This document shows, one piece after another, positions 1,833 to 46,729 of a stretch of DNA of 64,000 bases. The position numbers and the translations under genes are program-made. This stretch comes from an uncultured Dehalococcoidaceae bacterium. Lineage in GTDB: Bacteria > Chloroflexota > Dehalococcoidia > UBA2979. The stretch spans positions 27,603 through 91,602 of the forward strand of contig CAZMCK010000002.1 in NCBI GenBank assembly GCA_964565075.1, written 5' to 3'. Numbering within the stretch: the stretch's first letter is position 1; the number at the start of each line of letters is the position of its first letter. The notes under the pieces are model-generated. The model did no database searches. It was not told the origin of the DNA and saw only the letters and a list, made by a program, of their open reading frames with translations.

Positions 1833-2645
1833 CTAACCGCGGCCGCGCGGCGCGCGCAGCGCGAAGCGCTCCGGATCCTGCAACCACGGCCGGTTCGCGA
1901 ACTGTGCGCGCAACCCCGACGCGAGCTCGCGCAGCACGTCGGGCCCCGCGAGGGCGGCACGCCGCCGCGCGTCCTCGTCGCCGGTCAGGCTGTCGAGCCA
2001 CGGCCGCAGCCAGCGGCTGCGCTGCGTGGCGCGCGCGGCGGGGTACAGCCACTCGGCGGGCGGGTAGCTGCCCTCGTCGAGCAGGCAAGCGAGGCGCGCG
2101 ACGGCCCCGGCCGCCTCGCCCGCGGCGATCAGCGCCTCGGGCTCGGCAAGCGGGAGCGCGTCGAGGGCGGCGAACGCCTGCAGGTAGAGCGCGCGGGCCG
2201 CGCGCTCCAGTGCATCGACCTCCAGCCGGGCCGCCGCCCCCGCGATTGCGTCGTGCCGGCCTCGCGGGTCGTGGAGCACCCCGGCGTGGCGGAGCGTCCA
2301 CCGCGCCTCGAAGGCGCGGCGCGTGGAGGCTTCGAGGAGCGCCGCACAGCCCTCGCTGGTCAGGACCGTGAGCTCGGCGGCGTCGTCGCGCACGCGCCGC
2401 AGGCCGTCGCTCATGAGCGGGCTCAGCCACGGCTCGGGCAGCGTGCGCGCGTCGGCGGCGTCGACGAGCAGCCAGTACGCGGGCGTGAGGTCGTCGACCC
2501 GCGAGGCGTCCACCCAGTCGGCGACGGGCGGGCGGACGAGGAGCAGCGTGAGGTCACGCTCCATCTCGTCCCACGGCGGCTCATCGAGGAGTGCGAGGCG
2601 AGGGTCGCCCTCGGGCGGACGCGGCTCGGCGTCCTCGCTGGTCAT
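1833..2645 (-). CDS. hypothetical protein (270 aa)
   Basis: Internal ATG (MTSEDAEP...) of ORF 1833..3509. Its ATG overlaps the TGA of the upstream flavodoxin-like gene (ATGA coupling). The N-terminal 288 aa of the long ORF is Arg-rich antisense of the wrbA-like gene. Confidence 0.5.
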   Translation of the reverse strand: MTSEDAEPRPPEGDPRLALLDEPPWDEMERDLTLLLVRPPVADWVDASRVDDLTPAYWLLVDAADARTLPEPWLSPLMSDGLRRVRDDAAELTVLTSEGCAALLEASTRRAFEARWTLRHAGVLHDPRGRHDAIAGAAARLEVDALERAARALYLQAFAALDALPLAEPEALIAAGEAAGAVARLACLLDEGSYPPAEWLYPAARATQRSRWLRPWLDSLTGDEDARRRAALAGPDVLRELASGLRAQFANRPWLQDPERFALRAPRGRG

Positions 2646-3154
2646 GACGCCTCGGCCTCGAGCCGGACGGCGAGGGTCGCGACGCGCCAGCCGAGCGTGC
2701 GCGCCTGCTCGCGGTCGTCGTTGGTGAGTTCGCCGGCGGCGGTGGCGCCGTAGAAGGAGCCGGAGCGGCGCATGCGCTCGGTCCACTGCAGGCCGACGAA
2801 GATCATGCCGTGCCCGACGAGCAGGTGCAGGATCTGCTGCAGGGTCACCTCGAGCCCGCCGCGCGGCGACCAGCCCGCCGCGAAGGCGCCGCCCGGCTTG
2901 CCCGCCAGGTCGCCGCTCTCCCAGAGGTCGCCGGACTCGTCCAGCCAGCTCTTGAGGCGGCCGGTCACGCCCGTCCAGTTCGGCGAGCCGACGATCAGCG
3001 CGTCGGCCTCCAGCAGCTCGTCCTGGTCGGCGTCCTCGACATCGAGGAGCACCGGGGTCGCGCCGCGCACCAGCGCGATGCCCACGCCGACGTGCTGGGC
3101 CAGTCCGCGGATCAGGCCGGCCCGGCCGTCGTAGACCACCAGTACGCGCGCCAC
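2642..3154 (-). CDS. flavodoxin-like NAD(P)H:quinone oxidoreductase (WrbA type)
   Basis: 170 aa with flavodoxin fold signatures (VLVVYDGRAG...IVGSPNWTG). GC3-rich codons. Confidence 0.7.
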   Translation of the reverse strand: MARVLVVYDGRAGLIRGLAQHVGVGIALVRGATPVLLDVEDADQDELLEADALIVGSPNWTGVTGRLKSWLDESGDLWESGDLAGKPGGAFAAGWSPRGGLEVTLQQILHLLVGHGMIFVGLQWTERMRRSGSFYGATAAGELTNDDREQARTLGWRVATLAVRLEAEAS

Positions 3155-3181
3155 GGTGCGACGGAGCCCGGGTCGCCGCGG

Positions 3182-3451
3182 CTAGCCGTCGGTCCCGGTC
3201 TGCTCGGTGACGACGCGGCGGAAGTGGGTCACGCGTTCGTCGTCCTCGTCGATGACCAGCTCCTCGTCCTCGACGGTCTCGCGCAGCCAGGTGATGACCG
3301 CGGCAGCGCCGCCGTAGGCGACGAACCACTCGAGGCCCTGGAGCAGGGCGAGCAGGCCGACGCGTTCGCTGCCGCGGTAGCGCACCGTGCCCCATGCGAT
3401 ACCGCCGGCGAGTGCGGCGAGGGCGAACCCGAGTTGCTGCTTGTCGCTCAT
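3182..3451 (-). CDS. small hypothetical membrane protein (89 aa)
   Basis: Two hydrophobic segments. GGAGG ribosome-binding site ahead of the ATG at 3451. Confidence 0.4.
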   Translation of the reverse strand: MSDKQQLGFALAALAGGIAWGTVRYRGSERVGLLALLQGLEWFVAYGGAAAVITWLRETVEDEELVIDEDDERVTHFRRVVTEQTGTDG

Positions 3452-3591
3452 CGCGCGCCTCCTTCGTGTGTTCGGTGGGTCTTGGCATCATCGTACGTGG
3501 CGCGGGCACGCGGGCATAGCCAGCGGCTCAGAGGGCCGGGGATGCAGGCAACAGCAGTGGTTCGGGGCTCTCTGGTGGCGTCTCCCCCGTA

Positions 3592-3608
3592 GTTCTGACA
3601 CACTGCGC
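3592..3608 (+). promoter_or_regulatory. conserved motif GTTCTGACACAC-N-GCGCC, copy 1 (upstream of the Mo-hydroxylase operon)
   Basis: 17 of 18 positions identical to a second copy at 33337..33354. Both are preceded by a TTCGG(GG)CTCTC element. Confidence 0.5.
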
Positions 3609-3700
3609 CGGAAATCGGGAACCTTATAGGCGTGGGGTGGCGTACCCTGCGCGATGGCGCGCGCCCGAAGACGTGCGTCGCAGTCGGGAAGGGGAAGCGT

Positions 3701-4594
3701 TTGCAGGCACTAACGGTGGAACGCCCCGCGACGATCCAGGAGGCGGTGCAGCTGCTCAACGACGGCGGCGACACTGCGAAGGTGCTGGCCGGCGGAACGG
3801 ACGTGATCGTCATCGCGCGTTCCCGGCGCCGCACCATCGACTTGCTGGTCGACGTCAAGCGGATTCCAGAACTGACGGCGATCGAGTGGGACCCGGGTTC
3901 GGGCCTCACCATCGGCGCCGCAACGCCGTGCTACGAGCTCTACGGCGACGCGGACATCAACGCGAACTACCCGGCCATCATCGACTCTGCGTCGCTGATC
4001 GGCGGGACGGGCATCCAGGGCCGCGCGAGCTTCGGCGGCAACCTCTGCAACTCCTCGCCCTCGGGCGACACGATCCCGACACAGATCGTGCTCGAAGGGG
4101 TCGCGAACATCATCGGCCCCGGCGGCGAGCGGCAGGTGCCCGTGGAGGACTTCTGCACGGGCCCGGGCCGGAACGTGCTGGAGCAGGGCGAGTTCCTGGT
4201 CTCGCTGCACTTCCCGGCGCCCGAGGCGGGCAGCGGTGCGCGCTTCCTGCGCTTCATCCCGCGTAACGAGATGGACATCGCGGTCTGCAACGCGGCCTCG
4301 GCCGTGAAGATGGACGGCGACACCGTGCGCTGGGCGCGCGTATCCCTCGGCGCCGTCGCGCCGGTGCCCCTGCTGGTGCAGGGCGCCGCCGACGCGCTCG
4401 TGGGCAACCCGCTCAACGACGAGACGATCGCGGCAGCGGCCGCAGCCTCGCGCGAGGCTGCCAGCCCGATCGACGACATGCGCGGTTCGATCCGGCAGCG
4501 CAAGCACCTCTCTGCGGTGCTGACCACGCGCACGCTGGAGCAGGCCGGCGCACGTGCACGTGGGGAGCACGTCCCCTCGGTGGGAGGGCACTAA
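3701..4594 (+). CDS. molybdenum hydroxylase FAD-binding medium subunit (CoxM/XdhB family)
   Basis: ORF 3632..4594. The likely TTG start at 3701 follows GGGAAGGGGA and gives MQALTVERPATIQEAV..., matching CoxM N-termini. FAD-binding motifs AGGTD and GGN.CN are present. The GTG at 3632 is an alternative start. Confidence 0.85.
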   Translation: MQALTVERPATIQEAVQLLNDGGDTAKVLAGGTDVIVIARSRRRTIDLLVDVKRIPELTAIEWDPGSGLTIGAATPCYELYGDADINANYPAIIDSASLIGGTGIQGRASFGGNLCNSSPSGDTIPTQIVLEGVANIIGPGGERQVPVEDFCTGPGRNVLEQGEFLVSLHFPAPEAGSGARFLRFIPRNEMDIAVCNAASAVKMDGDTVRWARVSLGAVAPVPLLVQGAADALVGNPLNDETIAAAAAASREAASPIDDMRGSIRQRKHLSAVLTTRTLEQAGARARGEHVPSVGGH

Positions 4595-4595
4595 G

Positions 4596-5066
4596 TTGGC
4601 CAACCAGATCATCTCCGCCACCATCAACGGTGAGCCCATGGAGTTCCTCGCCGACACCCGCGACAGCCTCCTCGAGGCGCTGCGCGAGCGCATCGGCCTC
4701 ACGGGGACCAAGGAAGGCTGTAACGACGGCAACTGCGGCGCGTGCTCGGTCATCATGGACGGCCGGCTCGTGAACTCCTGCCTCGTCATGGCCGCCGAGG
4801 CCGACGGCTCGGACGTCACGACCGTCGAGGGCCTCGCCACCGAGGACGGGCTGATCCCGCTGCAGCAGACCTTCCTGGAGGAGGCGGCCCTGCAGTGCGG
4901 CATCTGCACGCCGGGCTTCCTCGTCGCCTCCAAGGCGCTGCTCGACGCCAACCCGAACCCGACAGAGTTCGAGGCGCGGTACTGGCTCGCCGGCAACCTC
5001 TGCCGGTGCACGGGCTACGACAAGATCATCCGCGCGGTCCTCAGGGCTGCTGAAGTCGAGGCCTAG
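4596..5066 (+). CDS. molybdenum hydroxylase [2Fe-2S] small subunit (CoxS family)
   Basis: TTG at 4596, 1 nt after the coxM-like stop, with a GGGAGGG ribosome-binding site. Product MANQIISATINGEP.. carries cysteine motifs CNDGNCGACSV and CGICTPG...CRCTGY. Confidence 0.9.
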   Translation: MANQIISATINGEPMEFLADTRDSLLEALRERIGLTGTKEGCNDGNCGACSVIMDGRLVNSCLVMAAEADGSDVTTVEGLATEDGLIPLQQTFLEEAALQCGICTPGFLVASKALLDANPNPTEFEARYWLAGNLCRCTGYDKIIRAVLRAAEVEA

Positions 5067-5076
5067 GCCTCGCATC

Positions 5077-5102
5077 GGACGGCCGCCGCGAGGCGGCCGT
5101 CC
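5077..5102 (+). promoter_or_regulatory. intra-operon stem-loop between the small and large Mo-hydroxylase subunit genes
   Basis: GGACGGCCGCC-GCGA-GGCGGCCGTCC: an 11-bp perfect stem with a GNRA-type loop, 11 nt after the small-subunit stop and 33 nt before the large-subunit GTG. Confidence 0.5.
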
Positions 5103-5134
5103 TGCATCCAACCACACGCACGAAGGAGACCTGA

Positions 5135-7423
5135 GTGGTTACCACTGACAAGCCCGAGTACAAGGTCGTCGGCACGCGCCCGATCCGCCCGGACGGGGCG
5201 GACAAGGTCACCGGCCGCGCCGAGTACGGGGGCGACTACCACGCAGCAAACCTGCTGCACGGCCAGGTGCTGCGCAGCCCGCACGCCCACGCCATCATCA
5301 AGAGCATCGACACCTCGAAGGCCGAGGCCCTCGATGGCGTGAAGTCCGTCATCACCAACGCCGACTTCCCGCAGCCCAGCGACGAGCTCGTCGACATGGG
5401 CGAGGGCGCGGCGACCAGCGCACGCTGGCTGCTGGACAACGTCCTCGCCGGTGAGAAGGCGCTCTACCGCGGCCACGCGGTCGCCGCCGTGGCGGCCACC
5501 GACGCGCACATCGCCGAGGACGCGATCGGCCTCATCGAGGTCGAGTACGAAGTGCTCGAGCCGGTGCTGGACGTGATCGAGGCGATGGACGAGAACGCGC
5601 CGCTGCTGCACGACTTCCTCCGCACCGAGGAGGTCGGGGGCATGTTCGACCCGCCGTCCGGGATCGGCGACCAGCCGACCAACGTCGCGAAGCACGCCCG
5701 TTTCGAGGCAGGCGACCTGGACGCCGGGTTCGCCGAGGCCGACGTCGTCATCGAGCGCGAGTTCCGCACCTCGATGGCGCACCAGGGCTACATCGAGCCG
5801 CACAACGGCAGCGCGTTCTACAACCGCGACGGCCACCTCACGGTGTGGACGAGCACACAGGGCTCGTTCGGCATCCGCGAGATGTGCGCCACGCTCATGG
5901 ACATGCCGCTGTCCAGCGTGACCTGCGTCCCGATGGAGATCGGCGGCGGCTTCGGCGGGAAGATCCCCGTCTACCTCGAGCCGCTCGCGGCGCTGATGTC
6001 GAAGCAGACCGGCCGCCCGGTCAAGCTCATCATGACGCGCCAGGCGGTCCTCGAGGCCACGGGTCCGACGTCCGGCACCGTCGTGCGCGCCAAGATCGGC
6101 GCGAAGAGCGACGGCACGCTCACGGCGGCCGACGTGTGGATGGCGTTCGAGGCCGGGGGCTACCCGGGCTCGCCGTTCACCGCCGGCATGATGTGCGCGC
6201 TCGCCCCGTACGAGTTCCCGAACGCCGTGGTCGAGGGCTACGACGTGGTCGTCAACAAGCCCAAGGTCTCGGCCTACCGCGCCCCGGGCGCTCCGCAGGC
6301 TGAGTTCGCCGTCGAGTCCGTCATGGACGAGATCGCGGATCGGCTGGAGATGGACCCGATGGACCTGCGTTCCATGAACGCCACCAGCGAGGGCTCGCGC
6401 CGTGTCGACGGCGCCGTCTTCGGGGTCATCGGCAACGAAGAGGTCATGGAGGTGGTCAAGAACAGCGACCACTACCGCTCCGAGCTGCAGGGTGAGAACC
6501 GCGGCCGTGGCGTCGCCATGGGCTTCTGGTTCAACGTCGGGTTCGAGTCGAGCGCCTACGCCAACGTGAACCCCGACGGCACGGTCAGCCTCGTGCTCGG
6601 CTCGGTCGACATCGGCGGTTCGCGCGCTTCGCTCTCGATGCAGATGGCGGAGTCGCTCGGCATCGCCGGCGACGACGTGAAGCCGCACGTGGTCGACACC
6701 GACTCGATTGGCTTCACCGGCGTCACCGGTGGCAGCCGCACGACCTTCGCCGGTGGCTGGGCCTGCCACGAGGCCGCGATGGACATCCGTCGCCAGATGG
6801 AGGAGCGCGCCGCCCAGATCTGGGAGGCCGACCGGGACTCCGTCGCCTACGGTGACGACGGCGTGATCCGCGGCCCCGGGGACGACCAGAGCTTCACGTT
6901 CGCCGAGCTGGCTGCCCAGCTCCCGCTGACCGGCGGCCTGATCCAGGGCCAGGCGGACGTCTCGCCCATGGAGTCCGGCCCCGCCTTCGCCGGCCACATC
7001 GTGGACGTCGAGGTGGACCCGGAGACCGGCAAGGTCGACGTGCTCCGCTACACGGCCGTCCAGGATGTCGGCACTGCGGTCCACCCCTCGTACGTCGAGG
7101 GGCAGATGCAGGGTGGCGTCGCGCAGGGCGTCGGCATGGCGCTGACGGAGGAGTACTTCTACTCCGACGACGGCACGATGCTGAACTCGAGCCTGCTGGA
7201 CTACCGCATGCCCACCGCGCTGGACCTGCCGATGATCGAGACGGTCCTCGTGGAAGTGCCGAACCCCGGCTCGCCGTACGGCGTCCGCGGCGTCGGCGAG
7301 GTGCCGATCGTGCCGCCGCTCGCGGCGGTCGCGAACGCGGTGTCCGCGGCGCTCGGCCAGCGCATGACCACGCTGCCGCTCACCCCGCGGCAGATCCTCG
7401 AGGAGACTGTCCTCGACGAGTAG
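5135..7423 (+). CDS. molybdenum hydroxylase large (molybdopterin-binding) subunit, paralog 1
   Basis: 762 aa. GAAGGAGA ribosome-binding site 8 nt before the GTG. Xanthine dehydrogenase / CoxL-family domains. The active-site loop reads AYRAPGAP. Confidence 0.9.
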   Translation: MVTTDKPEYKVVGTRPIRPDGADKVTGRAEYGGDYHAANLLHGQVLRSPHAHAIIKSIDTSKAEALDGVKSVITNADFPQPSDELVDMGEGAATSARWLLDNVLAGEKALYRGHAVAAVAATDAHIAEDAIGLIEVEYEVLEPVLDVIEAMDENAPLLHDFLRTEEVGGMFDPPSGIGDQPTNVAKHARFEAGDLDAGFAEADVVIEREFRTSMAHQGYIEPHNGSAFYNRDGHLTVWTSTQGSFGIREMCATLMDMPLSSVTCVPMEIGGGFGGKIPVYLEPLAALMSKQTGRPVKLIMTRQAVLEATGPTSGTVVRAKIGAKSDGTLTAADVWMAFEAGGYPGSPFTAGMMCALAPYEFPNAVVEGYDVVVNKPKVSAYRAPGAPQAEFAVESVMDEIADRLEMDPMDLRSMNATSEGSRRVDGAVFGVIGNEEVMEVVKNSDHYRSELQGENRGRGVAMGFWFNVGFESSAYANVNPDGTVSLVLGSVDIGGSRASLSMQMAESLGIAGDDVKPHVVDTDSIGFTGVTGGSRTTFAGGWACHEAAMDIRRQMEERAAQIWEADRDSVAYGDDGVIRGPGDDQSFTFAELAAQLPLTGGLIQGQADVSPMESGPAFAGHIVDVEVDPETGKVDVLRYTAVQDVGTAVHPSYVEGQMQGGVAQGVGMALTEEYFYSDDGTMLNSSLLDYRMPTALDLPMIETVLVEVPNPGSPYGVRGVGEVPIVPPLAAVANAVSAALGQRMTTLPLTPRQILEETVLDE

Positions 7424-7458
7424 CACTCCGCGCGTGAGCGCGAGCGACACGCTACAAA

Positions 7459-7490
7459 CACTGGCGGCGCCCAACCGGGCGCCGCCAGTG
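7459..7490 (+). terminator. perfect 14-bp-stem hairpin between the two large-subunit paralogs
   Basis: CACTGGCGGCGCCC-AACC-GGGCGCCGCCAGTG, 36 nt after the stop of paralog 1. Confidence 0.55.
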
Positions 7491-7558
7491 CTATGTGTGG
7501 GGCTTCCTCGCGGTGTCGCGGCGCGGCATACAGGGCGGGCACGCTCGGCCCTGCGGTA

Positions 7559-7564
7559 TACAAT
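7559..7564 (+). promoter_or_regulatory. TACAATCG -10-like box 39 nt upstream of large-subunit paralog 2 (internal promoter candidate)
   Basis: GGTATACAATCGCGCC. The same octamer precedes both double-domain CoA-transferase genes at the same distance. Confidence 0.4.
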
Positions 7565-7602
7565 CGCGCCGAAGCCGATCCCCGCGCCCTGGGAGGTTCG
7601 CC

Positions 7603-9897
7603 GTGGTCACCACCGAGAAGCCCGAGTACCGCGTCGTCGGAACGAGGCCGCTCCGGCCGGACGGCGCCGACAAGGTGACCGGACGCGCGCAGTACGGCGT
7701 CGACGTCTCGCTGCCCGGCATGCTATACGGCCGCGTGCTGCGCAGCCCCCACGCGCACGCTCGCATTCTCAGCGTCGACACCTCGAAGGCCGAGGCGCTC
7801 GACGGCGTCCGCGCCGTCGCCACCTTCGCCGACCTGCCGATCGATGACGAGGAGACCGTCGTCGACATCGGCGAGGGCGCGGCCGAGGGGCGCTGGATGG
7901 CGCGGCTCGTCTTCGCCGACGACAAGGCGCTCTTCAAGGGCCATGCCGTGGCCGCCGTCTGCGCCACCGATCCCCACATCGCCGAGGACGCCCTCGAACT
8001 GATCGAGGTCGAGTACGAGCCACTGCCGGTCGTCCTCGATGCGCGCGAGTCCATGGACGAGAACGCGCCGCTGCTGCACCCCGACCTGCTCACCGAGGAA
8101 GTCGCGGGCTTCGGCGTCGGCGACGTCTCCACGGCGCGGCCGTCGAACATCGGCAAGCACTGCGAGTTCGCAATCGGTGACGTGGACGCCGGGTTCGAGG
8201 AGGCCGAGATCATCCTCGAGCGCGAGTTCGAGACCTCGGCGTACCACCAGGGCTACATCGAGGCGCAGAACGGCGCGGCGATGTGGAACCCGGACGGCGA
8301 GCTGACCGTGTGGGTGAGCAGCCAGGGCCCGTTCGTGGTCCGCGCGCAGCTGGCGCAGCTGCTCGACATGCCGCTCAGCAAGGTGAAGGTCGTGCCGATG
8401 GAGATCGGCGGCGGCTTCGGCGGCAAGATCCCCGTCTACATGGAGCCGATGGCCGCGATCATGTCGAAGAAGACCGGTCGCCCGGTCAAGATGTACATGA
8501 CGCGGCAGGAGGTCCTCGAGTCCACCGGCCCCACGCCGGGCTCGTGGGTGCGGGCGAAGATCGGCGCGAAGCGCGACGGCACGCTCGTCGCCGCCGACGT
8601 GGCGCTGGCGTTCGAGTCGGGCGGGTTCCCGGGCTCGGCGTTCGTGGCCGGTGCGCGCTGTGCACTCGGGCCGTACGACATCCCGAACATGCACGTCGAG
8701 GGCTGGGACGTCGTCGTCAACAAGCCGAAGGTCGCCGCGTACCGCGCGCCCGGCGCCCCGCAGACGGAATTCGCCGTCGAGTCGCTGATGGACGAGCTCG
8801 CCGAGGTGCTTGAGCGCGACCCGATGGAGCTGCGCTACCAGAACGCCGCCGGCCAGGGCACGCGTCTCGTGGACGGCACGGCGCTCGGCGTGGTCGGCAA
8901 CACGCAGGTCATGGACGCGATCACGCAGAGCGACCACTACCGCTCCGAGCTGCAGGGCGAGAACCGCGGCCGCGGCGTCGCGATGGGCTTCTGGGGCAAC
9001 GGCGGCATGGAGACGAGCGCGCTCGCGAACGTCAACGCCGACGGCACCGTGAGCCTCGTCGTCGGCACCGTCGACATCGGCGGCCTGCGTGCGACGCACG
9101 CGATGCAGCTCGCCGAGACGCTCGGCCTCTCATACGAGGAGGTGCACCCGAAGGTCGTCGACACAGACAGCGTCGGGATGACCTCGGTGACAGGCGGGAG
9201 CCGCAGCACGTTCGCCGGCGGCTGGGCGATGCACGAGGTCGGCATGGACCTCCGCCGCCAGCTCGAGGCGCGCGCCGCGCAGATCTGGGAGGTCGACGCC
9301 GACGACGTGACGTACGGCGACGACGCCGTCATCCGCGGCCCCGCCGATGGCGACGAAGCGCGCAGCATGACGTTCGGTGAGCTGGCCGGCCAGCTCGCGA
9401 TGACCGGCGGGATGATCCAGGGCAGCGCCTCGGTGCGGCCGGAGACCGTCGGGCCGACCTTCGCGGGCCACATCGTGGACGTCGAGGTGGACCCGGAGAC
9501 CGGCAAGGTCGACGTGCTCCGCTACACGGCCGTGCAGGACGTGGGTACCGCCATCCACCCCTCGTACGTCGAGGGGCAGATCCAGGGCGGCGCGCTACAG
9601 GGTGTGGGCATGGCGCTGACCGAGGAGTACTTCTACGACGACGACGGCGTGATGCGGAACTCGAGCCTGCTCGACTACCGCATGCCGACGGCGCTCGACA
9701 CGCCGATGATCGACGCGGTGCTCGTCGAGGTGCCGAACCCCGGCCACCCCTACGGGGTGCGAGGGGTCGGCGAGGTGCCGATCGTGCCGCCGCTGGCGGC
9801 CGTCGCCAACGCGATCCACGATGCGGTGGGCGTGCGCATGGCGAAGCTGCCGGCCACGCCGCGCGCAATCCTCGAGGAGTTGGAGCCGGACGCCTAG
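7603..9897 (+). CDS. molybdenum hydroxylase large subunit, paralog 2 (tandem duplicate)
   Basis: Internal GTG of ORF 7495..9897, preceded by GGAGG, giving MVTTEKPEYRVVGTRP.. in parallel with paralog 1 (MVTTDKPEYKVVGTRP..). 764 aa, same AYRAPGAP loop. Near-identical C-terminal blocks (AGHIVDVEVDPETGKVDVLRYTAVQDVGTA). Confidence 0.9.
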   Translation: MVTTEKPEYRVVGTRPLRPDGADKVTGRAQYGVDVSLPGMLYGRVLRSPHAHARILSVDTSKAEALDGVRAVATFADLPIDDEETVVDIGEGAAEGRWMARLVFADDKALFKGHAVAAVCATDPHIAEDALELIEVEYEPLPVVLDARESMDENAPLLHPDLLTEEVAGFGVGDVSTARPSNIGKHCEFAIGDVDAGFEEAEIILEREFETSAYHQGYIEAQNGAAMWNPDGELTVWVSSQGPFVVRAQLAQLLDMPLSKVKVVPMEIGGGFGGKIPVYMEPMAAIMSKKTGRPVKMYMTRQEVLESTGPTPGSWVRAKIGAKRDGTLVAADVALAFESGGFPGSAFVAGARCALGPYDIPNMHVEGWDVVVNKPKVAAYRAPGAPQTEFAVESLMDELAEVLERDPMELRYQNAAGQGTRLVDGTALGVVGNTQVMDAITQSDHYRSELQGENRGRGVAMGFWGNGGMETSALANVNADGTVSLVVGTVDIGGLRATHAMQLAETLGLSYEEVHPKVVDTDSVGMTSVTGGSRSTFAGGWAMHEVGMDLRRQLEARAAQIWEVDADDVTYGDDAVIRGPADGDEARSMTFGELAGQLAMTGGMIQGSASVRPETVGPTFAGHIVDVEVDPETGKVDVLRYTAVQDVGTAIHPSYVEGQIQGGALQGVGMALTEEYFYDDDGVMRNSSLLDYRMPTALDTPMIDAVLVEVPNPGHPYGVRGVGEVPIVPPLAAVANAIHDAVGVRMAKLPATPRAILEELEPDA

Positions 9898-9927
9898 CGT
9901 CCGCGAACCTGGGCCGGGAGGCAGGAG

Positions 9928-10191
9928 ATGGCGAAAGTCTTCGTACCCGCGCTGATGCGCAAGCTGTCCAACGAGGAGCCGGTGGTCGACATACCCGGGA
10001 ACACGCTGCGCGAGGTGGTCAACAACCTCGACGATGCGTACCCGGGCATGAAGGACCTGATCATCGAGAACGGCCGCGTGCGGCCAGGCCTCGCGCTCGC
10101 CGTCGACGGTGTCATGTCGGCGACGGGGCTGATGGCGAAGGTGCCCGAGGACGGCGAGGTGCACATCCTGCCCGCCATCGGGGGCGGGTAG
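9928..10191 (+). CDS. MoaD/ThiS/CysO-family sulfur-carrier protein (C-terminal GG)
   Basis: 87 aa ending ...ILPAIGGG. Overall resemblance to CysO/MoaD beta-grasp carriers. GGGAGG ribosome-binding site. Confidence 0.7.
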   Translation: MAKVFVPALMRKLSNEEPVVDIPGNTLREVVNNLDDAYPGMKDLIIENGRVRPGLALAVDGVMSATGLMAKVPEDGEVHILPAIGGG

Positions 10192-10443
10192 ACCGCCGCT
10201 CCCCCGACAACCCGAGGGGCCTCGATCCGGGCCTGTGACGCTGATCGGTGCGCCTCCCAGTGACGCCGCCGGGTCGTGAGCGCGACTCGCGGTCGTGTTA
10301 TGTGCCCCTCGTAGCGCACCGCTCATGGCGTGGGCCGTTCTGCTAGACTGCGCCGCGACAGGAGCCGCTCCGCGGGCAGGTGCCCCGCGTTGCGGGGAAT
10401 CGCGGGCGGCTACCCGCACGAGGCACGACGCAGGAGGTGCAGA

Positions 10444-11301
10444 TTGACGCAAGACAGATACGGCGGAAACGTCGACGCCCCGATCGAGCGGACCCCGCTG
10501 CCGGACTGGCCGTACGAGGAACTCCTCTACGAGACCATCGACGACGGGCGCATCGCGCTGATCACCATGAACCGCCCGGAGCGCATGAACTCCAGCGACC
10601 CCGAGATGGGGCAGCGCTGGTACGACGCCTGGACGACGTTCGCCAACGACGACGAGCAGTGGGTCGCGATTGTCACCGGCGCCGGTGACCGTGCCTTCTC
10701 GGCCGGCCAGGACCTCAAGATCCGCGCCGAGCTGGAGCAGGAGGGCGGCGACGCCCCGTACCAGCGGCGGGCCCCGAACGTCACGCCCATCGGCGAGAAG
10801 CTCGGCTGCTGGAAGCCGACCATCGCGGCCATCAACGGCTTCGCGATCGCCGGTGGCTGGGCGACGGCGCAGAACTGCACGTTCCGCATCGCCGAAGAGC
10901 ACGCGCAGATGAACATCGCCGAGGCGCGGTGGAACCAGGGCGCGGGCTTCGTGGCGTGGCTGCCGCGGCTCATGCACACGGCGCACGCCCTTGAGGTCTG
11001 CATCATGGGCGACCGGCGCGTCAGCGCGCAGCGCGCCTACGAGATGGGCTTCGTCAACAAGGTGGTGCCGAAGGGCCAGTCGGTCGAGGAGGCCGTGGAC
11101 TGGGCGCGCACCATCACGCGGATGGCTCCGCGCGCGGTGCAGAACTTCCACCAGCTGATCTACCAGTGCTGGAACCAGAGCATCCCGGAGTCCCAGCAGA
11201 CTGCGGCGGCGCTCGAGTTCAACCTCCGCGGCATGGAGGACTCGCTCGAGGGCCCGCTGGCCTTCGCCGAGAAGCGGCCGGCGGTCTTCAAGAACCGCTA
11301 G
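10444..11301 (+). CDS. enoyl-CoA hydratase/isomerase family protein (crotonase paralog 1)
   Basis: TTG at 10444, 7 nt after AGGAGG, within ORF 10330..11301. Crotonase motifs ITMNRPERMN, TGAGDRAFSAGQDL and INGFAIAGG. The C-terminus ...EGPLAFAEKR is shared with the other three paralogs. Confidence 0.85.
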   Translation: MTQDRYGGNVDAPIERTPLPDWPYEELLYETIDDGRIALITMNRPERMNSSDPEMGQRWYDAWTTFANDDEQWVAIVTGAGDRAFSAGQDLKIRAELEQEGGDAPYQRRAPNVTPIGEKLGCWKPTIAAINGFAIAGGWATAQNCTFRIAEEHAQMNIAEARWNQGAGFVAWLPRLMHTAHALEVCIMGDRRVSAQRAYEMGFVNKVVPKGQSVEEAVDWARTITRMAPRAVQNFHQLIYQCWNQSIPESQQTAAALEFNLRGMEDSLEGPLAFAEKRPAVFKNR

Positions 11302-11320
11302 TCCGCAGCAAGTGAACAAA

Positions 11321-11350
11321 CATAAGGGCGGCCCTTGGGCCGCCCTTATG
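11321..11350. terminator. perfect 14-bp-stem hairpin between convergent genes (bidirectional terminator candidate)
   Basis: CATAAGGGCGGCCC-TT-GGGCCGCCCTTATG, located 20 nt after the crotonase stop and 40 nt after the stop of the opposing gene. Confidence 0.6.
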
Positions 11351-11391
11351 GTGTGCCGGGGTCGGCGGGAGCGGGTTACCTACATAACAGG

Positions 11392-12006
11392 CTAGTCGCC
11401 GAGGATGGTGTCGTAGCCGAGCGAGCGGATCTCCTCGACGTACTCGGCGCGCCACCCGGCGGCGGGGATGCGGCGGCGCAGGCTGCGGAACTCGGCGTGG
11501 TAGCGGAGGTACTCCTCCTCCAGGCGCCGACGCCACGCCGCCTCCTCGCGGGCCGCGTCCGGCGCGACCTCCTCGAAGGGGAGCTCGAACTGGTCCTCGG
11601 TGAGGTCGTACTCGTCACGCCAGTACTCGGCGAGGTAGTCGAGCGAGTCTTCCAGGTCGCGCCGGCAGTCCAGCATGTAGGTCTCGAGGAGTTGCCCGGC
11701 GTCGGCGAGGGTGCCGCGCAGGCGCTCGCTGCGCGCGCAGTCAACGCAGAGCGTGGTGAGCTTGCGCGCCTCGCAGGCGTCACCGCGCGGGCAGTTCTGG
11801 TGGCGGGGGGCAAACGGGGAGAGCGACGGCTTTCGCGAGTACCCGACGACGAGTGCATCGCAGTCGGCCTCACAGCGCGGGCAGGTGAGGCGACGCGCGA
11901 AGATCTGGTTGATCGCGTTCTCCCAGTCGATCTGCACGCCGCACGCTCCGATCAGTGGATGCTGCTCCGGCCGAGCGACGTTCCGTGGGTGGCCGCGAGC
12001 CGTCAA
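11392..12006 (-). CDS. hypothetical Cys-rich protein (putative zinc-binding)
   Basis: 204-aa ORF. Cysteine clusters CPRCEADC, CPRGDAC and CVDCARSE, followed by an acidic C-terminal half. The start codon is uncertain. Confidence 0.45.
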   Translation of the reverse strand: MTARGHPRNVARPEQHPLIGACGVQIDWENAINQIFARRLTCPRCEADCDALVVGYSRKPSLSPFAPRHQNCPRGDACEARKLTTLCVDCARSERLRGTLADAGQLLETYMLDCRRDLEDSLDYLAEYWRDEYDLTEDQFELPFEEVAPDAAREEAAWRRRLEEEYLRYHAEFRSLRRRIPAAGWRAEYVEEIRSLGYDTILGD

Positions 12007-12592: not shown

Positions 12593-12633
12593 GCGGTCCT
12601 CGGTTGCTGTGTCCAGCCCGGCGCTACATAACA

Positions 12634-12659
12634 GAATGGCAGCCGTTCGGCTGCCATTC
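12634..12659. terminator. perfect 12-bp-stem hairpin downstream of the ferredoxin-oxidoreductase operon
   Basis: GAATGGCAGCCG-TT-CGGCTGCCATTC, immediately adjacent to the CTACATAACAG repeat. Confidence 0.55.
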
Positions 12660-12716
12660 CAGTTGTGCGCTGCGAGGTGAGCGACGGGCGCGCGTGGCGC
12701 CCGCTGCTCCGCTCGT

Positions 12717-13589
12717 CTAGATCGCCAGCGTGTCGAGCATCTCCTCGACGGTGCGCTGCTTCGCCTTGGTGCGCTCGCGCGCTTCGGCGAGGCGCTCATG
12801 CATCGGCGTGCTCTCGCGTGCGCGGTAGAGCAGGCCGATGGGGATGCCACCTTGCTGCGCGATGTCGAGCGCGCTGGCGAGGTTCGACGGGTCGTGGCTC
12901 TCCGGGATGTCCCACGCGCCGGGGTCGATGCCCTTCGCCGGGTTGCCCTTCAGCGCCTCGTACGTGTCGTTGTACGTGGTGCAGGGCGACTGGACGTGGA
13001 CCATCGAGAATCCCGGGTAGTCCATGGCGTCGCTGATGTGCTGCGCCAGGACGCGCGGCTGCGTCGAGATGGCCGAGACGACGTAGCCGACGCCGTAGGA
13101 GAGGTACAGCAGCAGCGGGTTGATCTGGTCGTCCAGCTTCCCGTACGGGGTCGTCGGGGTGACCATCCCGAACTCGGTGGTCGGCGAGGCCTGGCCCTTG
13201 GTGAGGCCGTACACGCCGTTGTCCATGATGATGCAGGTCACATCCAGGTTGCGCTTCGCGGCCGGGGCGATGTGCTCGCCGCCGATGCTCAGGAAGTCAC
13301 CGTCGCCGGCGACGACCACCACGTTCAGGTCGGGCCGCCCGGACTTGATGCCGAGCGCGACCGGGAGCGTGCGGCCGTGGATGCCGTGGATGCCGAAGGG
13401 CTGCGGGCCCTCCTGCAGGTGCACGAGGTTCCCGGAGCAGCCGATGCCGGCCACCATCACGGTGTCCTCGATCGGCCGGCTCTTCGTGTTCACCCAGTCG
13501 GCGAGCGCCAGCTCGATGGAGCGGACGACGGCGAAGTCGCCGCAGCCGGGGCACCACTTGAAGTCGTAGTCGGGGTTTCGCTTGGTCAT
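12717..13589 (-). CDS. 2-oxoacid:ferredoxin oxidoreductase beta subunit (TPP-binding)
   Basis: 290 aa with CPGCGDF and the TPP-binding GDGD motif. ATGA start/stop overlap with the alpha subunit gene. Confidence 0.9.
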   Translation of the reverse strand: MTKRNPDYDFKWCPGCGDFAVVRSIELALADWVNTKSRPIEDTVMVAGIGCSGNLVHLQEGPQPFGIHGIHGRTLPVALGIKSGRPDLNVVVVAGDGDFLSIGGEHIAPAAKRNLDVTCIIMDNGVYGLTKGQASPTTEFGMVTPTTPYGKLDDQINPLLLYLSYGVGYVVSAISTQPRVLAQHISDAMDYPGFSMVHVQSPCTTYNDTYEALKGNPAKGIDPGAWDIPESHDPSNLASALDIAQQGGIPIGLLYRARESTPMHERLAEARERTKAKQRTVEEMLDTLAI

Positions 13590-15292
13590 ACCGTGGCCAG
13601 CCTTTCGGCTCCGCTGCGTGCACCGACCCGCGTGACAAGGTCACTGACCTTGAACGGCAGTCCGGTGATCTGCGTGACTGATTCGGCCTTCACTCCCTGC
13701 TGCCGCAGCCAGCCGGAGAACTGGCCGAGGTAGTTGAGCTCCGGCACGATGACCAGCTCCTTCGTGCGCAACTCTTCCAGCAACGCCGATGGGAGCGGGT
13801 TCAGATACATGGTGTAGTACCAGCCGATGTCGACGCCGGCGTCTCGCAGCTGCTCGAACGCCGCGCGCGAGGTCCCCTTCGCGCCGCCCCACGGCATGAT
13901 GGCCACGGAGGCGCCGCTGTTCTCGGCCTCAAAGTCGCTCTCGTCCAGCAGTTCGAGCTTGCCGAACCGCCGGCGCGTCATCGGCAGGTGCGTGTGCGGC
14001 TGGTGCACGGTGTCGCCCTGCTCGTCGTGCTCGGAGGCGTTGGCGACGTAGGCGCCGGGGCCGCCGGGCACCGGGAACGGGCTGAGCGTCTCACCGGCGT
14101 AGCGCCGGTTGCCGTCGGCGCCTTCCGACACCACGCGGTTCTCGATGGTGAATGCGGTCGGGTCGGGGCGCACGATGTCCTGCGCCCGCTCGGCGATCTG
14201 CATCTCCGTGAGCAGGATGACCGGGCCCTGGTACCGCTCGGCCCAGTTGAGGGACATGATGCCGGCCTTGAAGCACTCCTCGACGGTGCCGGGGGCGATG
14301 ACGGGGAGCCGCATGTCGCCGTGGCCCGGGTTGAGGCACGCCAGCAGGTCCGACTGCTCGGTCTTCGTCGGCAGGCCGGTGGCCGGGCCACCGCGCTGCA
14401 CGTCGACGACCACGCAGGGGATCTCCGCCATCCACGCGAACCCGAGTCCCTCGCCCATGAGGCTGAAGCCGGGGCCGGCCGTGGAGGTCATCGCCTTCTT
14501 GCCGGCGTAGCCCGCGCCGATGATGGCGGAGATCGACTCGATCTCCGAGCTGGCCTGCACCACCGACTTGTCGTGCCCGTGGAGGTTGCCCTCCATGAAG
14601 ACGAGGATGGTGGTCGCCGGCGAGATCGGGTAGCCGACGAAGACGTCAAGGCCGGCCGCGATGGCGCCGAGCGAGAGGGCGTCGTTGCCCTTGATCACGA
14701 CGCGCGGCTGCGTCTCCTCCGGCGGGTCCTCGAGGTCCGCGACCTTGAAGCCGGTCTTGGTGACCTCGTCGAAGCCCAGCCCGAGGGCCTGGATGTTCGC
14801 GCGGATGATCTCTTCGTCGTTCGGGCGGCCGCGCGTGAAGCGGACCGTGATGAAGTCCTCGAAGTAGTCCGGCGGCATCCCGCCGAGCGCGGCGACCGCG
14901 CCGATGACGACCATGTTCGCGGCGCGGGGGTTACCCGTGGAGCGAGCGAGCTCGTCGACGGCAAGGCCGATGGCGTTGCCATTCGACTCGAGCTCGAAGT
15001 CCTCGGCGTTGTAGACCAGCACGCCGCCATCGCGGAGATCGCTGATGTGGTCCTCGTAGGCCTCACGGTTGAGGACGACGAGCACATCGAGCGCGTCTCC
15101 GTCGTGGAGGATCGGCTCTGTGGAGATCCGGGTCTGGGCCCACGTGGGGCCGCCCTTGATCTGCGAGGGATAGGTGGCATACGTCTGTACGTGGTAGCCC
15201 ACGCGCGCTGCCGCCTCGGCGAGCCCCTCGGCTGCCGTGACCTGACCCTGTCCGCCCTCGCCGGCGAACCTGACGATGAGATCCGTACTCAT
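13586..15292 (-). CDS. 2-oxoacid:ferredoxin oxidoreductase alpha subunit (fused gamma-alpha)
   Basis: 568 aa, pyruvate/ketoisovalerate/2-oxoglutarate oxidoreductase alpha family. Coupled to the beta subunit gene. Confidence 0.9.
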   Translation of the reverse strand: MSTDLIVRFAGEGGQGQVTAAEGLAEAAARVGYHVQTYATYPSQIKGGPTWAQTRISTEPILHDGDALDVLVVLNREAYEDHISDLRDGGVLVYNAEDFELESNGNAIGLAVDELARSTGNPRAANMVVIGAVAALGGMPPDYFEDFITVRFTRGRPNDEEIIRANIQALGLGFDEVTKTGFKVADLEDPPEETQPRVVIKGNDALSLGAIAAGLDVFVGYPISPATTILVFMEGNLHGHDKSVVQASSEIESISAIIGAGYAGKKAMTSTAGPGFSLMGEGLGFAWMAEIPCVVVDVQRGGPATGLPTKTEQSDLLACLNPGHGDMRLPVIAPGTVEECFKAGIMSLNWAERYQGPVILLTEMQIAERAQDIVRPDPTAFTIENRVVSEGADGNRRYAGETLSPFPVPGGPGAYVANASEHDEQGDTVHQPHTHLPMTRRRFGKLELLDESDFEAENSGASVAIMPWGGAKGTSRAAFEQLRDAGVDIGWYYTMYLNPLPSALLEELRTKELVIVPELNYLGQFSGWLRQQGVKAESVTQITGLPFKVSDLVTRVGARSGAERLATV

Positions 15293-20774: not shown

Positions 20775-20871
20775 GCGCATACTGAACGGGTAGTTATGTC
20801 CCGTCCCTGCCCTCCGGGTTCCACCCGGGGGGTGCGGGCGCGTGGCGACGATGAGGGTGAGGACGGGCGCG

Positions 20872-21366
20872 GTGGCGAAGCGCTCCTCGAAGAAGAAGCA
20901 GCCCGAGCTGCGCGAGGGTGGCACCATCGCGACGAACCGTCGCGCCCGCTACGACTACAGCATCGAGGGGACCTACGAGGCCGGCCTGGTCCTCACCGGC
21001 TCCGAGATCAAGTCGATACGCTCCGGCCGCGCCGACATCGCCGAAGGCTTCGCGCGCTTCGAAGGCGGCGAGCTGTGGCTGCATAACGTGCACATCGCCC
21101 CCTACGCGCCCGCCGGGGTGAACCATGAGCCGCTGCGGACCCGCAAGCTGCTCCTGCACCGCAACGAGCTCGAGCGCCTGGAGCGGGCGCTGCGCGAGCA
21201 GCCCGGGATGACCATCGTCCCGCTGCGGCTCTACCTGGCGCGCGGACTGGCGAAGGTCGAGATCGGCCTCGCGCGTGGCCGCCGACGCTACGACAAGCGC
21301 CAGGCGATCGCGAAGCGCGAGGCGGAACGGACCATGCAGCGGGCGATGCGACGGGACGCGCGCTAG
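20872..21366 (+). CDS. smpB: SsrA-binding protein SmpB
   Basis: ORF 20842..21366. The GTG at 20872 (8 nt after GAGGA) yields a 164-aa product of canonical SmpB length. Motifs IATNRRARYDY and TRKLLLH. Starts at 20842, 20851 or 20857 remain possible. Confidence 0.85.
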   Translation: MAKRSSKKKQPELREGGTIATNRRARYDYSIEGTYEAGLVLTGSEIKSIRSGRADIAEGFARFEGGELWLHNVHIAPYAPAGVNHEPLRTRKLLLHRNELERLERALREQPGMTIVPLRLYLARGLAKVEIGLARGRRRYDKRQAIAKREAERTMQRAMRRDAR

Positions 21367-21409: not shown

Positions 21410-21766
21410 TGGGGACGAAAGGGGTCGACAGCGGTTAACGGACACGGTTTGCGGGTCGAGGCGCCACCAACCTCGTAAAACAGGTGGCACCTTCATAACA
21501 GGCGATAACGAACTCGCCCTCGCCGCTTAGACAGCGGTGACGTTGTCCCCGGCTCTCGCCTGGCGAGCCGGGAGACAGCGCCGAAATGCCGGGCTGCAAT
21601 CGCGGGCGCGCGTCACAGGCCTCGCGACCAAGACTACTGCGACTGGCCGGCAGCCTCCCTCGTCAGCGCAGGGATGCCGGTGAGAACCCGCCGCTGACTA
21701 CGCCCGTAGCAGATCCGTGACGAAGGCTTGCTGGACGGGGAGTTCAATTCTCCCCCGTCTCCACCA
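21410..21766 (+). ncRNA. ssrA: tmRNA (ssrA)
   Basis: 5' GGGGACGAAAGGGGTCGAC pairs with 3' ...CGTCTCCACCA to form a 7-bp acceptor stem. T-arm GGACGGGGAGTTCAATTCTCCCCCGTC. Internal tag reading frame ...GGC GAT AAC GAA CTC GCC CTC GCC GCT TAG (..NELALAA*). Lies directly after smpB. Confidence 0.85.
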
Positions 21767-23330: not shown

Positions 23331-24200
23331 TTACGCGTCGATGAAGTTCGGGCGGCGCTTCTCCGAGAACGCCGTCGGGCCCTCGATCGAGTCCTGCATC
23401 CCGGCGAGGTTCTGCTCGAGCGCGTTCCCCCACTCCTGCGCGACCTCCGGCGGCATGTTGAAGCCGCGGTAGAGCGCCTGCTTGTTGTTGCGGACCGCGC
23501 GCGGCGCCATGTCCAGCATCCGCTGCGCGTACTCCATCGCCGTGTCCATGAGCTGGTCGTCCGGCACCACGCGCTGCGCCCAGCCGAGCTGGTACGCGCG
23601 CTGCGCGTCCCACTGCGTGTCGCCCCACAGGGTCAACTCGAGGGCCGAGCTCAGGCCGATCTGGCGCAGGACGGGGATCATCCAGCCGGCGCCTGGCATG
23701 TTCCACCGCACCTCGGCGATGCCCACGCGCGCCGACTCGGCCATGATGCGGATGTCGGTCTGCATCGCATACATGAAGCCGCCGGCGATCGCGAAGCCGT
23801 TGATGGCGGCGATGGTTGGCTTCCACAGCCCCATGCCCTCGGCGAGCGGGACCGAGTTCTTGCGCGGGCCGGCCGCGGGCCTCGGCGCGTCGTCACCCGA
23901 CGCCTCGGCCTGGCGGGTCTCCGAGGTCTGGATGAGGTCGGCCCCCGCGCAGAACGCCTTGTTGCCGGCGCCCGTGAGGATCGAGACGCGCGCGGTGGGG
24001 TCGTCGCGGAACTCGGCGTAGGCGTCGTAGAGCGCCTCGCCGAGGCCGTCGCCGATGGAGTTCATGCGGTGCGGGCGGTTGAGCGTGATCACGTGGATCT
24101 TCCCGCCCTCGTGCTTGTCGACCTTCACCACTGGGCCGAAGGTCTCCTGCGGCGTGTCACGGCCGTGCTTCTGCGGGTCGTAGGCTTCGTACTCGGGCAT
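23331..24200 (-). CDS. enoyl-CoA hydratase/isomerase family protein (crotonase paralog 2)
   Basis: Internal ATG (MPEYEAYDP..) of ORF 23331..24287, preceded by GGAAGGAG. Motifs ITLNRPHRMN, TGAGNKAFCAGADL and INGFAIAGG. Confidence 0.85.
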   Translation of the reverse strand: MPEYEAYDPQKHGRDTPQETFGPVVKVDKHEGGKIHVITLNRPHRMNSIGDGLGEALYDAYAEFRDDPTARVSILTGAGNKAFCAGADLIQTSETRQAEASGDDAPRPAAGPRKNSVPLAEGMGLWKPTIAAINGFAIAGGFMYAMQTDIRIMAESARVGIAEVRWNMPGAGWMIPVLRQIGLSSALELTLWGDTQWDAQRAYQLGWAQRVVPDDQLMDTAMEYAQRMLDMAPRAVRNNKQALYRGFNMPPEVAQEWGNALEQNLAGMQDSIEGPTAFSEKRRPNFIDA

Positions 24201-24324
24201 GTCTGCTGCTCCTTCCGGCGCTCCGGGCGGCGCCGCTGGCAGTGTAGTGCGATGGCGTTGCGCCTGCGTCGACGGGACGCCGCGCACGTGGAGCGCGCGG
24301 GCATGCGACGTGCGGGCATACAGA

Positions 24325-42977: not shown

Positions 42978-43089
42978 GACTATAGTGCCATCTCCCGGGG
43001 TCATGCAAGCCCCCGCGCCACCGTGCGGAGCCTAGCTCCGGGGGCTGGTAGGCTCGTTTGAACCTCTGACGAGACTGGAGCTTTCGCGA

Positions 43090-46649: not shown

Positions 46650-46671
46650 GATGCGCACCCCCCGGATTGCA

Positions 46672-46704: not shown

Positions 46705-46729
46705 AGCGTGTGGCTTCGGCCGTATCGTA

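Follow-up and report, generated by a model that had tools for sequence, protein, structure and literature searches.

A 64,000-nucleotide stretch of genomic DNA from an uncultured Dehalococcoidaceae bacterium (contig CAZMCK010000002.1; the whole stretch is called the window here, and positions are counted from its first letter) encodes a molybdenum hydroxylase whose large subunit is present in two tandem copies, followed by a small sulfur-carrier-like protein. The window has 70% G+C, and five proteins are encoded on its + strand between 3701 and 10191: a medium subunit (M), a small subunit (S), two large-subunit paralogs (L1 and L2) and the carrier-like protein, which we call Ubl. The genes and the features between them are as follows (aa, amino acids).

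3701..4594, + strand: M, FAD-binding medium subunit, 297 aa, TTG start (Pfam FAD_binding_5 and CO_deh_flav_C)
4596..5066, + strand: S, double 2Fe-2S small subunit, 156 aa, TTG start (Pfam Fer2 and Fer2_2)
5135..7423, + strand: L1, molybdopterin-binding large subunit, paralog 1, 762 aa (Pfam domains)
7429..7442, + strand: stem-loop 1, 5 bp with a GUGA loop, 3' of the L1 stop (structure kept in both clades of relatives)
7459..7490, + strand: stem-loop 2, perfect 14-bp stem with a 4-nt loop (folding; conserved core)
7559..7564, + strand: TACAAT, putative -10 hexamer of an L2-Ubl promoter (conservation)
7591..7596, + strand: GGGAGG, ribosome-binding site of L2 (sequence)
7603..9897, + strand: L2, large subunit, paralog 2, 764 aa, GTG start (Pfam domains)
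9928..10191, + strand: Ubl, CysO/MoaD-like β-grasp sulfur-carrier protein, 87 aa, C-terminus IGGG (Pfam ThiS)

Pfam confirms the order of FAD subunit, 2Fe-2S subunit and two full-length large subunits (762 and 764 aa) given in an initial annotation of this sequence. S starts 1 nt past the M stop behind the ribosome-binding site (RBS) GGGAGGG, and both of its Cys motifs are found; Ubl begins 30 nt past the L2 stop and has its own RBS. The 800-aa version of L2 that an ORF finder starts at 7495 is an upstream extension, relatives using ATG at the position of the GTG start codon. The single M and S genes directly 5' of L1 are its cognate FAD and double 2Fe-2S subunits. The search of the genome for additional M and S genes that the initial annotation proposed was carried through for the window, in which no second copy of either was found. 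A Pfam scan of about 57 window ORFs detected no XdhC/CoxI, CoxD/E/F/G, MoeB/ThiF or MoaE domain, in agreement with the earlier statement that XdhC/CoxF-type maturation genes are missing.

L1 and L2 both contain the domains Ald_Xan_dh_C, MoCoBD_1 and MoCoBD_2 (Pfam, E values of 1e-27 to 1e-70, above gathering scores). The motifs TSTQGSF in L1 and VSSQGPF in L2, together with GGGFGGK, AYRAPGAPQ and GVGEVP in both, were aligned to Q240, R387 and E763 of CO dehydrogenase and to the 4-hydroxybenzoyl-CoA reductase structure 1rm6. Neither copy has lost the tQ Gln, the cofactor loop GGGFGGK, the Arg of the active-site loop or the GVGE Glu, and catalytic roles are assigned to the Gln, the Arg and the GxGE Glu as in other members of the family. 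Inactivating substitutions, which the initial annotation had named as evidence that would count against it, are found in neither copy. Together with M and S, L1 and L2 make up a three-component molybdenum hydroxylase of the xanthine oxidase family with an unassigned organic substrate.

Comparison with characterized enzymes places this hydroxylase at a distance from each of them. No curated NCBIfam equivalog cut-off is reached by L1 or L2 (XdhA, PucD, 4-hydroxybenzoyl-CoA reductase, glyceraldehyde dehydrogenase, PaoC, CO dehydrogenase). The top-scoring NCBIfam model for L2 is that of 4-hydroxybenzoyl-CoA reductase (TIGR03194/03195), on which the L proteins score 414-448 bits against a cut-off of 994.55; on the xanthine dehydrogenase model NF043082 they score about 450 bits against 780. 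The residue that follows GGGFGGK is Ile in both copies and not the Glu of xanthine dehydrogenases, which we take to be the purine-binding E802 of the bovine enzyme. By sequence the closest solved structure to L2 is 1rm6_A, the α subunit of the HcrCAB enzyme of Thauera aromatica (E value 1e-90, full-length alignment), followed in the PDB ranking by CO dehydrogenase large chains, KdhL, quinoline oxidoreductase and nicotinate dehydrogenase. HcrCAB shares the FAD/2Fe-2S/Mo three-subunit architecture, but its loop reads AMRGHGTVD where L1 and L2 have AYRAPGAPQ, no benzoyl-CoA pathway genes adjoin the window's locus, and its FAD subunit holds an extra 4Fe-4S insertion that is absent here. M matches the model of the reductase's FAD subunit in two pieces with 128.6 bits against a cut-off of 404.55, and no HcrB-type 4Fe-4S insertion is present in its sequence because its four Cys are widely spaced. 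The three-subunit N-heterocycle hydroxylases KdhLMS (7dqx), quinoline 2-oxidoreductase (1t3q) and nicotinate dehydrogenase (3hrd) resemble the locus in subunit set and catalytic motifs but are only distantly similar in sequence (E values of 1e-63 to 1e-71), and no catabolic pathway genes are linked to the locus in the window. The nicotinate dehydrogenase of E. barkeri also has two tandem Mo-subunit genes; these are the halves of one large subunit (3hrd_A, 425 aa; 3hrd_B, 330 aa), in contrast to the two full-length copies found here.

The active-site loop, which had been correctly read as AYRAPGAP in both copies, had also been described as non-canonical, and this description does not hold. AYRAPG is also present in the 6-hydroxypseudooxynicotine dehydrogenase KdhL (7dqx), R-G-x-G-A-P-Q occurs in the Desulfovibrio gigas aldehyde oxidoreductase and other family members, and the wider form FRG(Y/F)G(A/V)PQ is found in the D. 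gigas enzyme and nicotinate dehydrogenase. Judged by these motifs, AYRAPGAPQ is an ordinary loop of the xanthine oxidase family.

Thirty-four loci fetched with L2 as query, and five more obtained by exact protein look-ups, were compared. The nearest public relatives are metagenome-assembled genomes (MAGs) of Dehalococcoidia/Chloroflexota, and L2 is 99% identical in OZ242017.1 and DAOULE010000058.1. The window's layout, with a divergent WrbA gene followed by M-S-L1-L2-Ubl, exists in two genome clades, A (94-99% identical to the window) and B (about 76%); the TTG start and RBS of M are kept in 11 loci. More distant relatives (55-60% identity; loci L013, L017, L018, L021, L034, L035 and L039) have M-S-L-Ubl, L021 being a Planctomycetota MAG. 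A further Chloroflexota group (L023-L028; for example, L023 5666-12253) is arranged M-S-La-Ubl-Lb, and L037 has L-Ubl alone. Orphan L genes without M or S are common in relatives. In OZ242017.1, which is nearly identical to the window, a third L (P0072, 767 aa, 67% identical to L1; locus L040, 8001-10304) lies about 165 kb from the main locus with no M, S or Ubl nearby; the antitoxin-like 86-aa ORF that follows it is, on inspection, not a second Ubl.

In neighbour-joining trees the L1 clade (bootstrap 94-100%) and the L2 clade (100%) each hold both genome clades, which indicates one old duplication, while La and Lb of L023-L028 arose by an independent duplication (100% bootstrap). Loci L035 and L039 have the chromosomal neighbourhood of the window with a single L (HflX ... 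WrbA, then M-S-L-Ubl, then ... PTPS and 2-oxoacid:ferredoxin oxidoreductase). The sole L of L039 (M-S-L2-Ubl locus at 7528-11651) nests within the L2 clade with 100% bootstrap and is L2-like over its whole length, which excludes an L1/L2 recombinant and argues that L2 is the heir of the ancestral L beside Ubl, with L1 added. On this phylogenetic evidence, L1 is the derived, added copy and can be lost again, a secondary loss to which the trees point in L039.

L1 and L2 are identical at 535 of 765 residues (70%). In a sliding comparison the two share 57-80% of residues across the first ~600 positions and 80-90% across the last ~160, so that the earlier description of the copies as diverging in the middle is only roughly right. 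Synonymous divergence is flat along the gene, with a C-terminal pS of 0.28-0.36 that equals the remainder; this rules out gene conversion as the source of the similar C-termini, which therefore reflect constraint. Measured against the L002 orthologs, the window's L1 has a dN/dS of 0.18 and its L2 one of 0.075, with dN of 0.058 and 0.027, so that protein change in L1 is about twice as rapid; the 95% GC3 compresses synonymous distances and inflates dN/dS for distant pairs. More than 10 genomes, spanning about 25% protein divergence, keep both copies at full length, and by these measures both are under purifying selection. Comparison of the L1 and L2 clades gives 26 positions with fixed differences, all conservative, beside 380 columns that are invariant in both. 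The region around the catalytic Gln (residues 201-250; TSTQGSFGIREM versus VSSQGPFVVRAQ) accounts for five of the 26 differences, weak evidence for divergence near the active site, and no inactivation is seen.

A promoter of its own seems likely for the second copy. TACAAT is invariant in all 12 loci with both L copies, 35-48 nt 5' of the L2 start (about 38 nt in the window), between poorly conserved flanks. In the window, the more general hexamer TAC[AG]AT has a 4.4-fold higher density between genes than within coding DNA, and it stands 38, 38, 53 and 41 nt 5' of four start codons. One such box belongs to the unit divergent from M:

3490..3495, - strand: TACGAT box in front of the 89-aa ORF/WrbA unit that diverges from M; it lies 38 nt before the start codon at 3451

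The sequence ATCATCGTACG, which holds this box, is invariant in 10 loci, and the unit shares its upstream intergenic region with M. The unit itself consists of a WrbA-like FMN reductase (2642-3154) and an 89-aa ORF without family assignment (3182-3495 together with the box), both on the - strand of the window, and its divergent arrangement is kept in the relatives L002-L015 and in all others that are syntenic, L035 and L039 included.

Furthermore, six relatives have extra DNA between the stem-loops and the TACAAT box, comprising foreign genes of 0.85-1 kb, partly antisense, in five of them and 130 extra bp in L005, and the distance from the box to L2 is kept despite these upstream insertions. 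In L001, L004, L009 and L010, relatives from both clades, the insertion is a 0.85-kb two-gene cassette (L004 9180-9961; L010 9159-9845) composed of a small acidic ORF on the + strand with a LDPGPEETVFKG motif and a convergent membrane protein of ~150-170 aa on the - strand; neither protein is assigned to any family by Pfam. Between clades the membrane protein shows 77% identity, as do the L orthologs, and the cassette therefore looks old and lost in the window's lineage; it is apparently ancestral and has been lost repeatedly. At the same site L002 holds another insertion (8982-9905, +), coding for a 307-aa protein with a signal-peptide-like N-terminus, an AAGGAGG RBS and no Pfam match. In L011, a 99%-identical relative, a 372-aa gene absent from the window (12611-13729, -; DxDxT motif, HAD-like by eye) separates Ubl from the crotonase gene, and together with the L1-L2 insertions it marks the spacers flanking L2-Ubl as hot spots of gene gain and loss.

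Since read-through across a convergent gene pair is unlikely, L2-Ubl would need its own promoter, and the box is the sole conserved candidate. Promoters with only a -10 element are known in high-GC bacteria, and that of L2-Ubl would be of this type. L2-Ubl is thus very probably a transcription unit of its own, as the initial annotation had suspected for L2 from the perfect 14-bp hairpin and -10-like box between the copies, both of which are found where it had placed them. Its description of the locus as a single operon is better replaced by two units, M-S-L1 and L2-Ubl.

The 179-nt L1-L2 spacer folds more stably than shuffled sequences (z = -3.35). Its two stem-loops lie directly 3' of the L1 stop in 11 of the 12 loci, with one compensatory change each (G-C to C-G between clades for stem-loop 1), and the core of stem-loop 2, GGCGGCGCC/GGCGCCGCC, is likewise kept in 11 of 12. 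By our estimate, about 0.01 such 14-bp hairpins are expected by chance in 64 kb, and none of 100 shuffles matched. With no other window copy of stem-loop 2 at 3 or fewer mismatches, an origin as a REP or mobile repeat is ruled out. A known RNA or riboswitch in the spacer is excluded by a permissive Rfam search of 3100-10500 that returned nothing relevant; over the whole window, Rfam at the gathering threshold reports only tmRNA. The stem-loops stay with L1 where DNA is inserted downstream, which marks them as a 3'-end element belonging to the M-S-L1 unit, one that may act as a terminator, an attenuator or an mRNA stabiliser. Two further hairpins lie in or beside the locus:

5077..5102, + strand: perfect 11-bp hairpin with a GCGA loop in the 68-nt S-L1 spacer (sequence)
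10272..10294, + strand: terminator-like hairpin with a T-rich tail, 3' of Ubl (terminator scan)

Another perfect 14-bp hairpin, at 11321-11350 where the crotonase gene and a 204-aa ORF converge, has T-rich tails on both strands and looks like a canonical bidirectional terminator, unlike the U-less hairpins of the Mo-hydroxylase locus.

Ubl matches Pfam ThiS marginally (23.5 bits against a cut-off of 22.5) and stays below the NCBIfam cut-offs for moaD_arch (27.3 bits against 49.5) and SAMP1 (31.5 against 60). Its AF2 model has a pLDDT of 90 and a β-grasp topology. In profile comparison with the PDB, the best matches are CysO-type proteins (4n6e_B, 2.6e-13; 3dwg_C, 2.2e-11), and Foldseek ranks CysO first (TM 0.91), then a Thermus MoaD-related protein and SAMP1, with MoaD proper at a TM of about 0.66. 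Profile and predicted fold place Ubl in the ThiS/MoaD β-grasp superfamily, closest to CysO and not to MoaD, in keeping with the MoaD/CysO-like, GG-terminal carrier that the initial annotation had noted after L2. Its likeness to CysO of Mycobacterium tuberculosis (3dwg) and A. orientalis (4n6e) extends to the GG C-terminus; in contrast to CysO, Ubl (about 24% identity) has no CysM or Mec+ (JAMM) neighbours and is linked to L. The C-terminal Gly-Gly is invariant in 33 Ubl homologues, some of which have extensions past it, short or of ~27 aa, as in carrier precursors (~27 aa past GGG in L023-L028). The family comprises 456 representatives of 50%-identity clusters at E <= 1e-10. Fusions of Ubl homologues were considered as functional hints and set aside, being heterogeneous (α/β-hydrolase, VTT, DUF3237, HTH) and probably gene-call read-throughs.

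Ubl follows L in four architectures and two phyla, Chloroflexota and Planctomycetota, and across clades it alone joins M and S as a conserved neighbour. Clues to the substrate were sought among the remaining neighbours without result, since nothing else is conserved across clades: TPR, Ku, LigD, PIN, ABC, SDR and transhydrogenase genes come and go, and a crotonase gene lies 3' of Ubl in clade A only, behind a variable spacer. In the window itself, a tandem-rhodanese protein (46730-47908, -) is encoded beside a TusA sulfurtransferase (47966-48223, -), 37 kb from Ubl; these sulfur-relay proteins could feed a thiocarboxylate carrier.

Elsewhere, MoaD genes strictly adjacent to tungsten aldehyde:ferredoxin oxidoreductase (AOR) have been proposed to serve the synthesis of that enzyme's cofactor (Iyer, Burroughs & Aravind 2006, PMC1779556). 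As in that system, a small GG-terminal ThiS/MoaD gene adjoins a pterin-cofactor oxidoreductase here, apart from the general cofactor-synthesis operon; unlike in it, the partner is the unrelated xanthine oxidase family, the carrier is closest to CysO, and no MoeB, MoaE or MoaA gene is nearby. Our search of the accessible literature returned nothing specific on tandem L subunits or on MoaD beside xanthine-oxidase-family genes, which is absence of evidence only.

Taken together, these data suggest the following history and mechanism. From an ancestral layout M-S-L-Ubl, L was duplicated in the ancestor of the two genome clades, L2 continuing the ancestral gene beside Ubl and L1 becoming an extra copy attached to M-S. 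The M-S-L1 unit would end in the double stem-loop, and L2-Ubl would start from its own -10-only TACAAT promoter. Both L1 and L2, catalytically competent by motif, would draw on the same M and S, with electrons passing from Mo to 2Fe-2S to FAD, and would form two isoenzymes with somewhat different substrate pockets, their ratio set by independent transcription. We infer that L1 and L2 assemble with the same M and S because the window has no second M/S pair and orphan L genes are frequent in relatives, the third L of OZ242017.1 among them. The C-terminal glycine of Ubl is probably thiocarboxylated and probably gives sulfur to the cofactor of the adjacent L, most likely to the pterin dithiolene, a role suggested by the parallel with MoaD beside tungsten aldehyde oxidoreductases. 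We hold this account as a whole (duplication of L, two transcription units, M and S shared by two isoenzymes, Ubl as sulfur donor) with moderate confidence.

A number of observations weigh against parts of it. For the history, the trees are by neighbour-joining only, and the sister grouping of L1 and L2 falls to 62% bootstrap with more taxa. For Ubl, no E1 (MoeB/ThiF), MoaE, JAMM protease, CysM, XdhC or cysteine desulfurase gene lies near it in any locus inspected, and with no E1, MoaE or desulfurase nearby its acceptor is a guess. For transcription, we infer the L2-Ubl promoter from conservation only: the compared loci have no conserved -35 element and a scan for the sigma-70 consensus (-10 plus -35) gave 0 sites. 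The tail of stem-loop 2, CUAUGUGU, has 4 U in 8 and no U-tract, and the hairpin was not reported by the terminator scan. The hairpin at 5077-5102, present in clade A only (L002 too) and not in clade B, is equally strong and lies inside an operon where transcription must pass it, and therefore a strong GC hairpin need not terminate; in L039, moreover, hairpin 2 is retained between S and the single L gene, without the TACAAT box. The L1-L2 hairpins may thus stop part of the transcription, or none of it, with some of it continuing into L2, and of the internal terminator and promoter claimed in the initial annotation the promoter is the part that the invariant box and the insertions upstream of it support, and the terminator is uncertain. 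The U-less hairpins in the S-L1 spacer and between S and L in L039, the absence of a -35 element and of a promoter-scan match, and genes that are all on one strand at short gaps in the window would suit a single polycistronic M-S-L1-L2-Ubl operon in which the stem-loops serve mRNA stability or processing and TACAAT is a regulatory or RNA-level motif. Such an operon is hard to reconcile with the five relatives in which 0.85-1 kb of foreign, partly antisense genes separates L1 from a box that keeps its distance to L2, or with the same type of hexamer 38-53 nt 5' of other first-in-operon genes, and we regard it as unlikely.

A similarly low probability attaches to the alternative that L1 and L2 are not separate isoenzymes but always pair as a heterodimer, which would form the core of an (L1L2)(M)2(S)2 complex. 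Enzymes of this family form (LMS)2 dimers with an L-L interface at their centre, and both the joint retention of L1 and L2 in two clades and their highly similar C-terminal ~160 residues would fit such an arrangement, but L039 has lost L1 and keeps M-S-L2-Ubl, single-L relatives are common, and separate promoters agree poorly with a fixed 1:1 stoichiometry. Somewhat more doubtful again is a joint extension of the favoured account in which Ubl is a dedicated thiocarboxylate donor for the Mo=S of the adjacent L and one M-S module serves interchangeable L subunits (L1, L2 and orphans) from separate promoters; Ubl would here install or repair the labile terminal sulfido ligand, in this lineage taking over the function of the XdhC/Moco-sulfurase route, and would not act as a general MoaD. 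That one L copy is a decaying or non-catalytic pseudo-enzyme kept by linkage is highly improbable: the faster protein evolution of L1 and its loss in L039 point that way, and against it stand the conserved full length of both copies, dN/dS well below 1 for both, the intact catalytic motifs and the conservative nature of the fixed differences. We give least credence of all to a (form II-like) aerobic CO dehydrogenase with two CoxL copies. The M-S-L order and the (LMS)2-type family are those of CoxMSL (1n5w, 8uem), CO dehydrogenase large chains are the second-best PDB matches, and the JGI name for relatives is 'CO/xanthine dehydrogenase Mo-binding subunit'. However, AYRAPGAPQ has neither the Cys of the Mo-S-Cu site nor the AYxCSFR motif, and the enzyme is therefore not a form I CO dehydrogenase; the AYRGAGR loop of form II CoxL-like proteins is not found either; the L proteins score 302-332 bits on the NCBIfam CO dehydrogenase models (TIGR02416/NF040766) against cut-offs of 950-991; and the window has no coxD, coxE, coxF or coxG. 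By its motifs, this locus is ruled out as a Mo-Cu CO dehydrogenase, upholding the initial annotation.

Beyond the locus, the window contains a second pair of tandem paralogs (52294-54726 and 54736-57243, +; 810 and 835 aa). Both of these proteins carry family-III CoA-transferase domains, two in each, and a further paralog with one such domain is encoded nearby (45372-46832, -). Four enoyl-CoA hydratase paralogs (10444-11301, 23331-24287, 49895-50716 and 57134-58210), a luciferase-like monooxygenase and an acyl-CoA dehydrogenase are also encoded, and the CoA-transferase/enoyl-CoA hydratase set looks like a SAR202-like paralog expansion. The tmRNA gene (21411-21766, +; Rfam RF00023, 134 bits) is directly 3' of smpB (20842-21366, +). 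Genes of toxin-antitoxin type, all on the - strand, code for HicB and for a PIN-domain protein with a Phd/YefM antitoxin (29552-29872, 42240-42644 and 42654-43004).

The enzyme described here is an uncharacterised member of a very large known family, set apart by an unusual conserved layout in which duplication of the catalytic subunit alone, with a probable separate promoter, is combined with a linked CysO-like carrier. Few enzyme families in marine and sponge-associated Chloroflexota are as expanded, or as little understood, as the CoxL-like genes of the xanthine oxidase family, and in sponge-associated Chloroflexi the largest CoxL-like protein cluster has no assigned function (PMC8941161). 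The locus offers a clean, conserved example of duplication of the catalytic subunit alone, twice independently, with one FAD/FeS pair kept and the new L copies apparently brought under separate transcriptional control. For an uncultured lineage, the comparative data also give a likely -10 consensus, TAC[A/G]AT, with leaders of ~35-50 nt. The most interesting feature of the locus is the CysO-like carrier tied to an L clade across two phyla, and its linkage to L in Chloroflexota and Planctomycetota is a lead on cofactor maturation where no XdhC adjoins the enzyme. If one M-S pair does serve several L subunits, counts of coxL would greatly overestimate the number of independent enzyme systems in these genomes.

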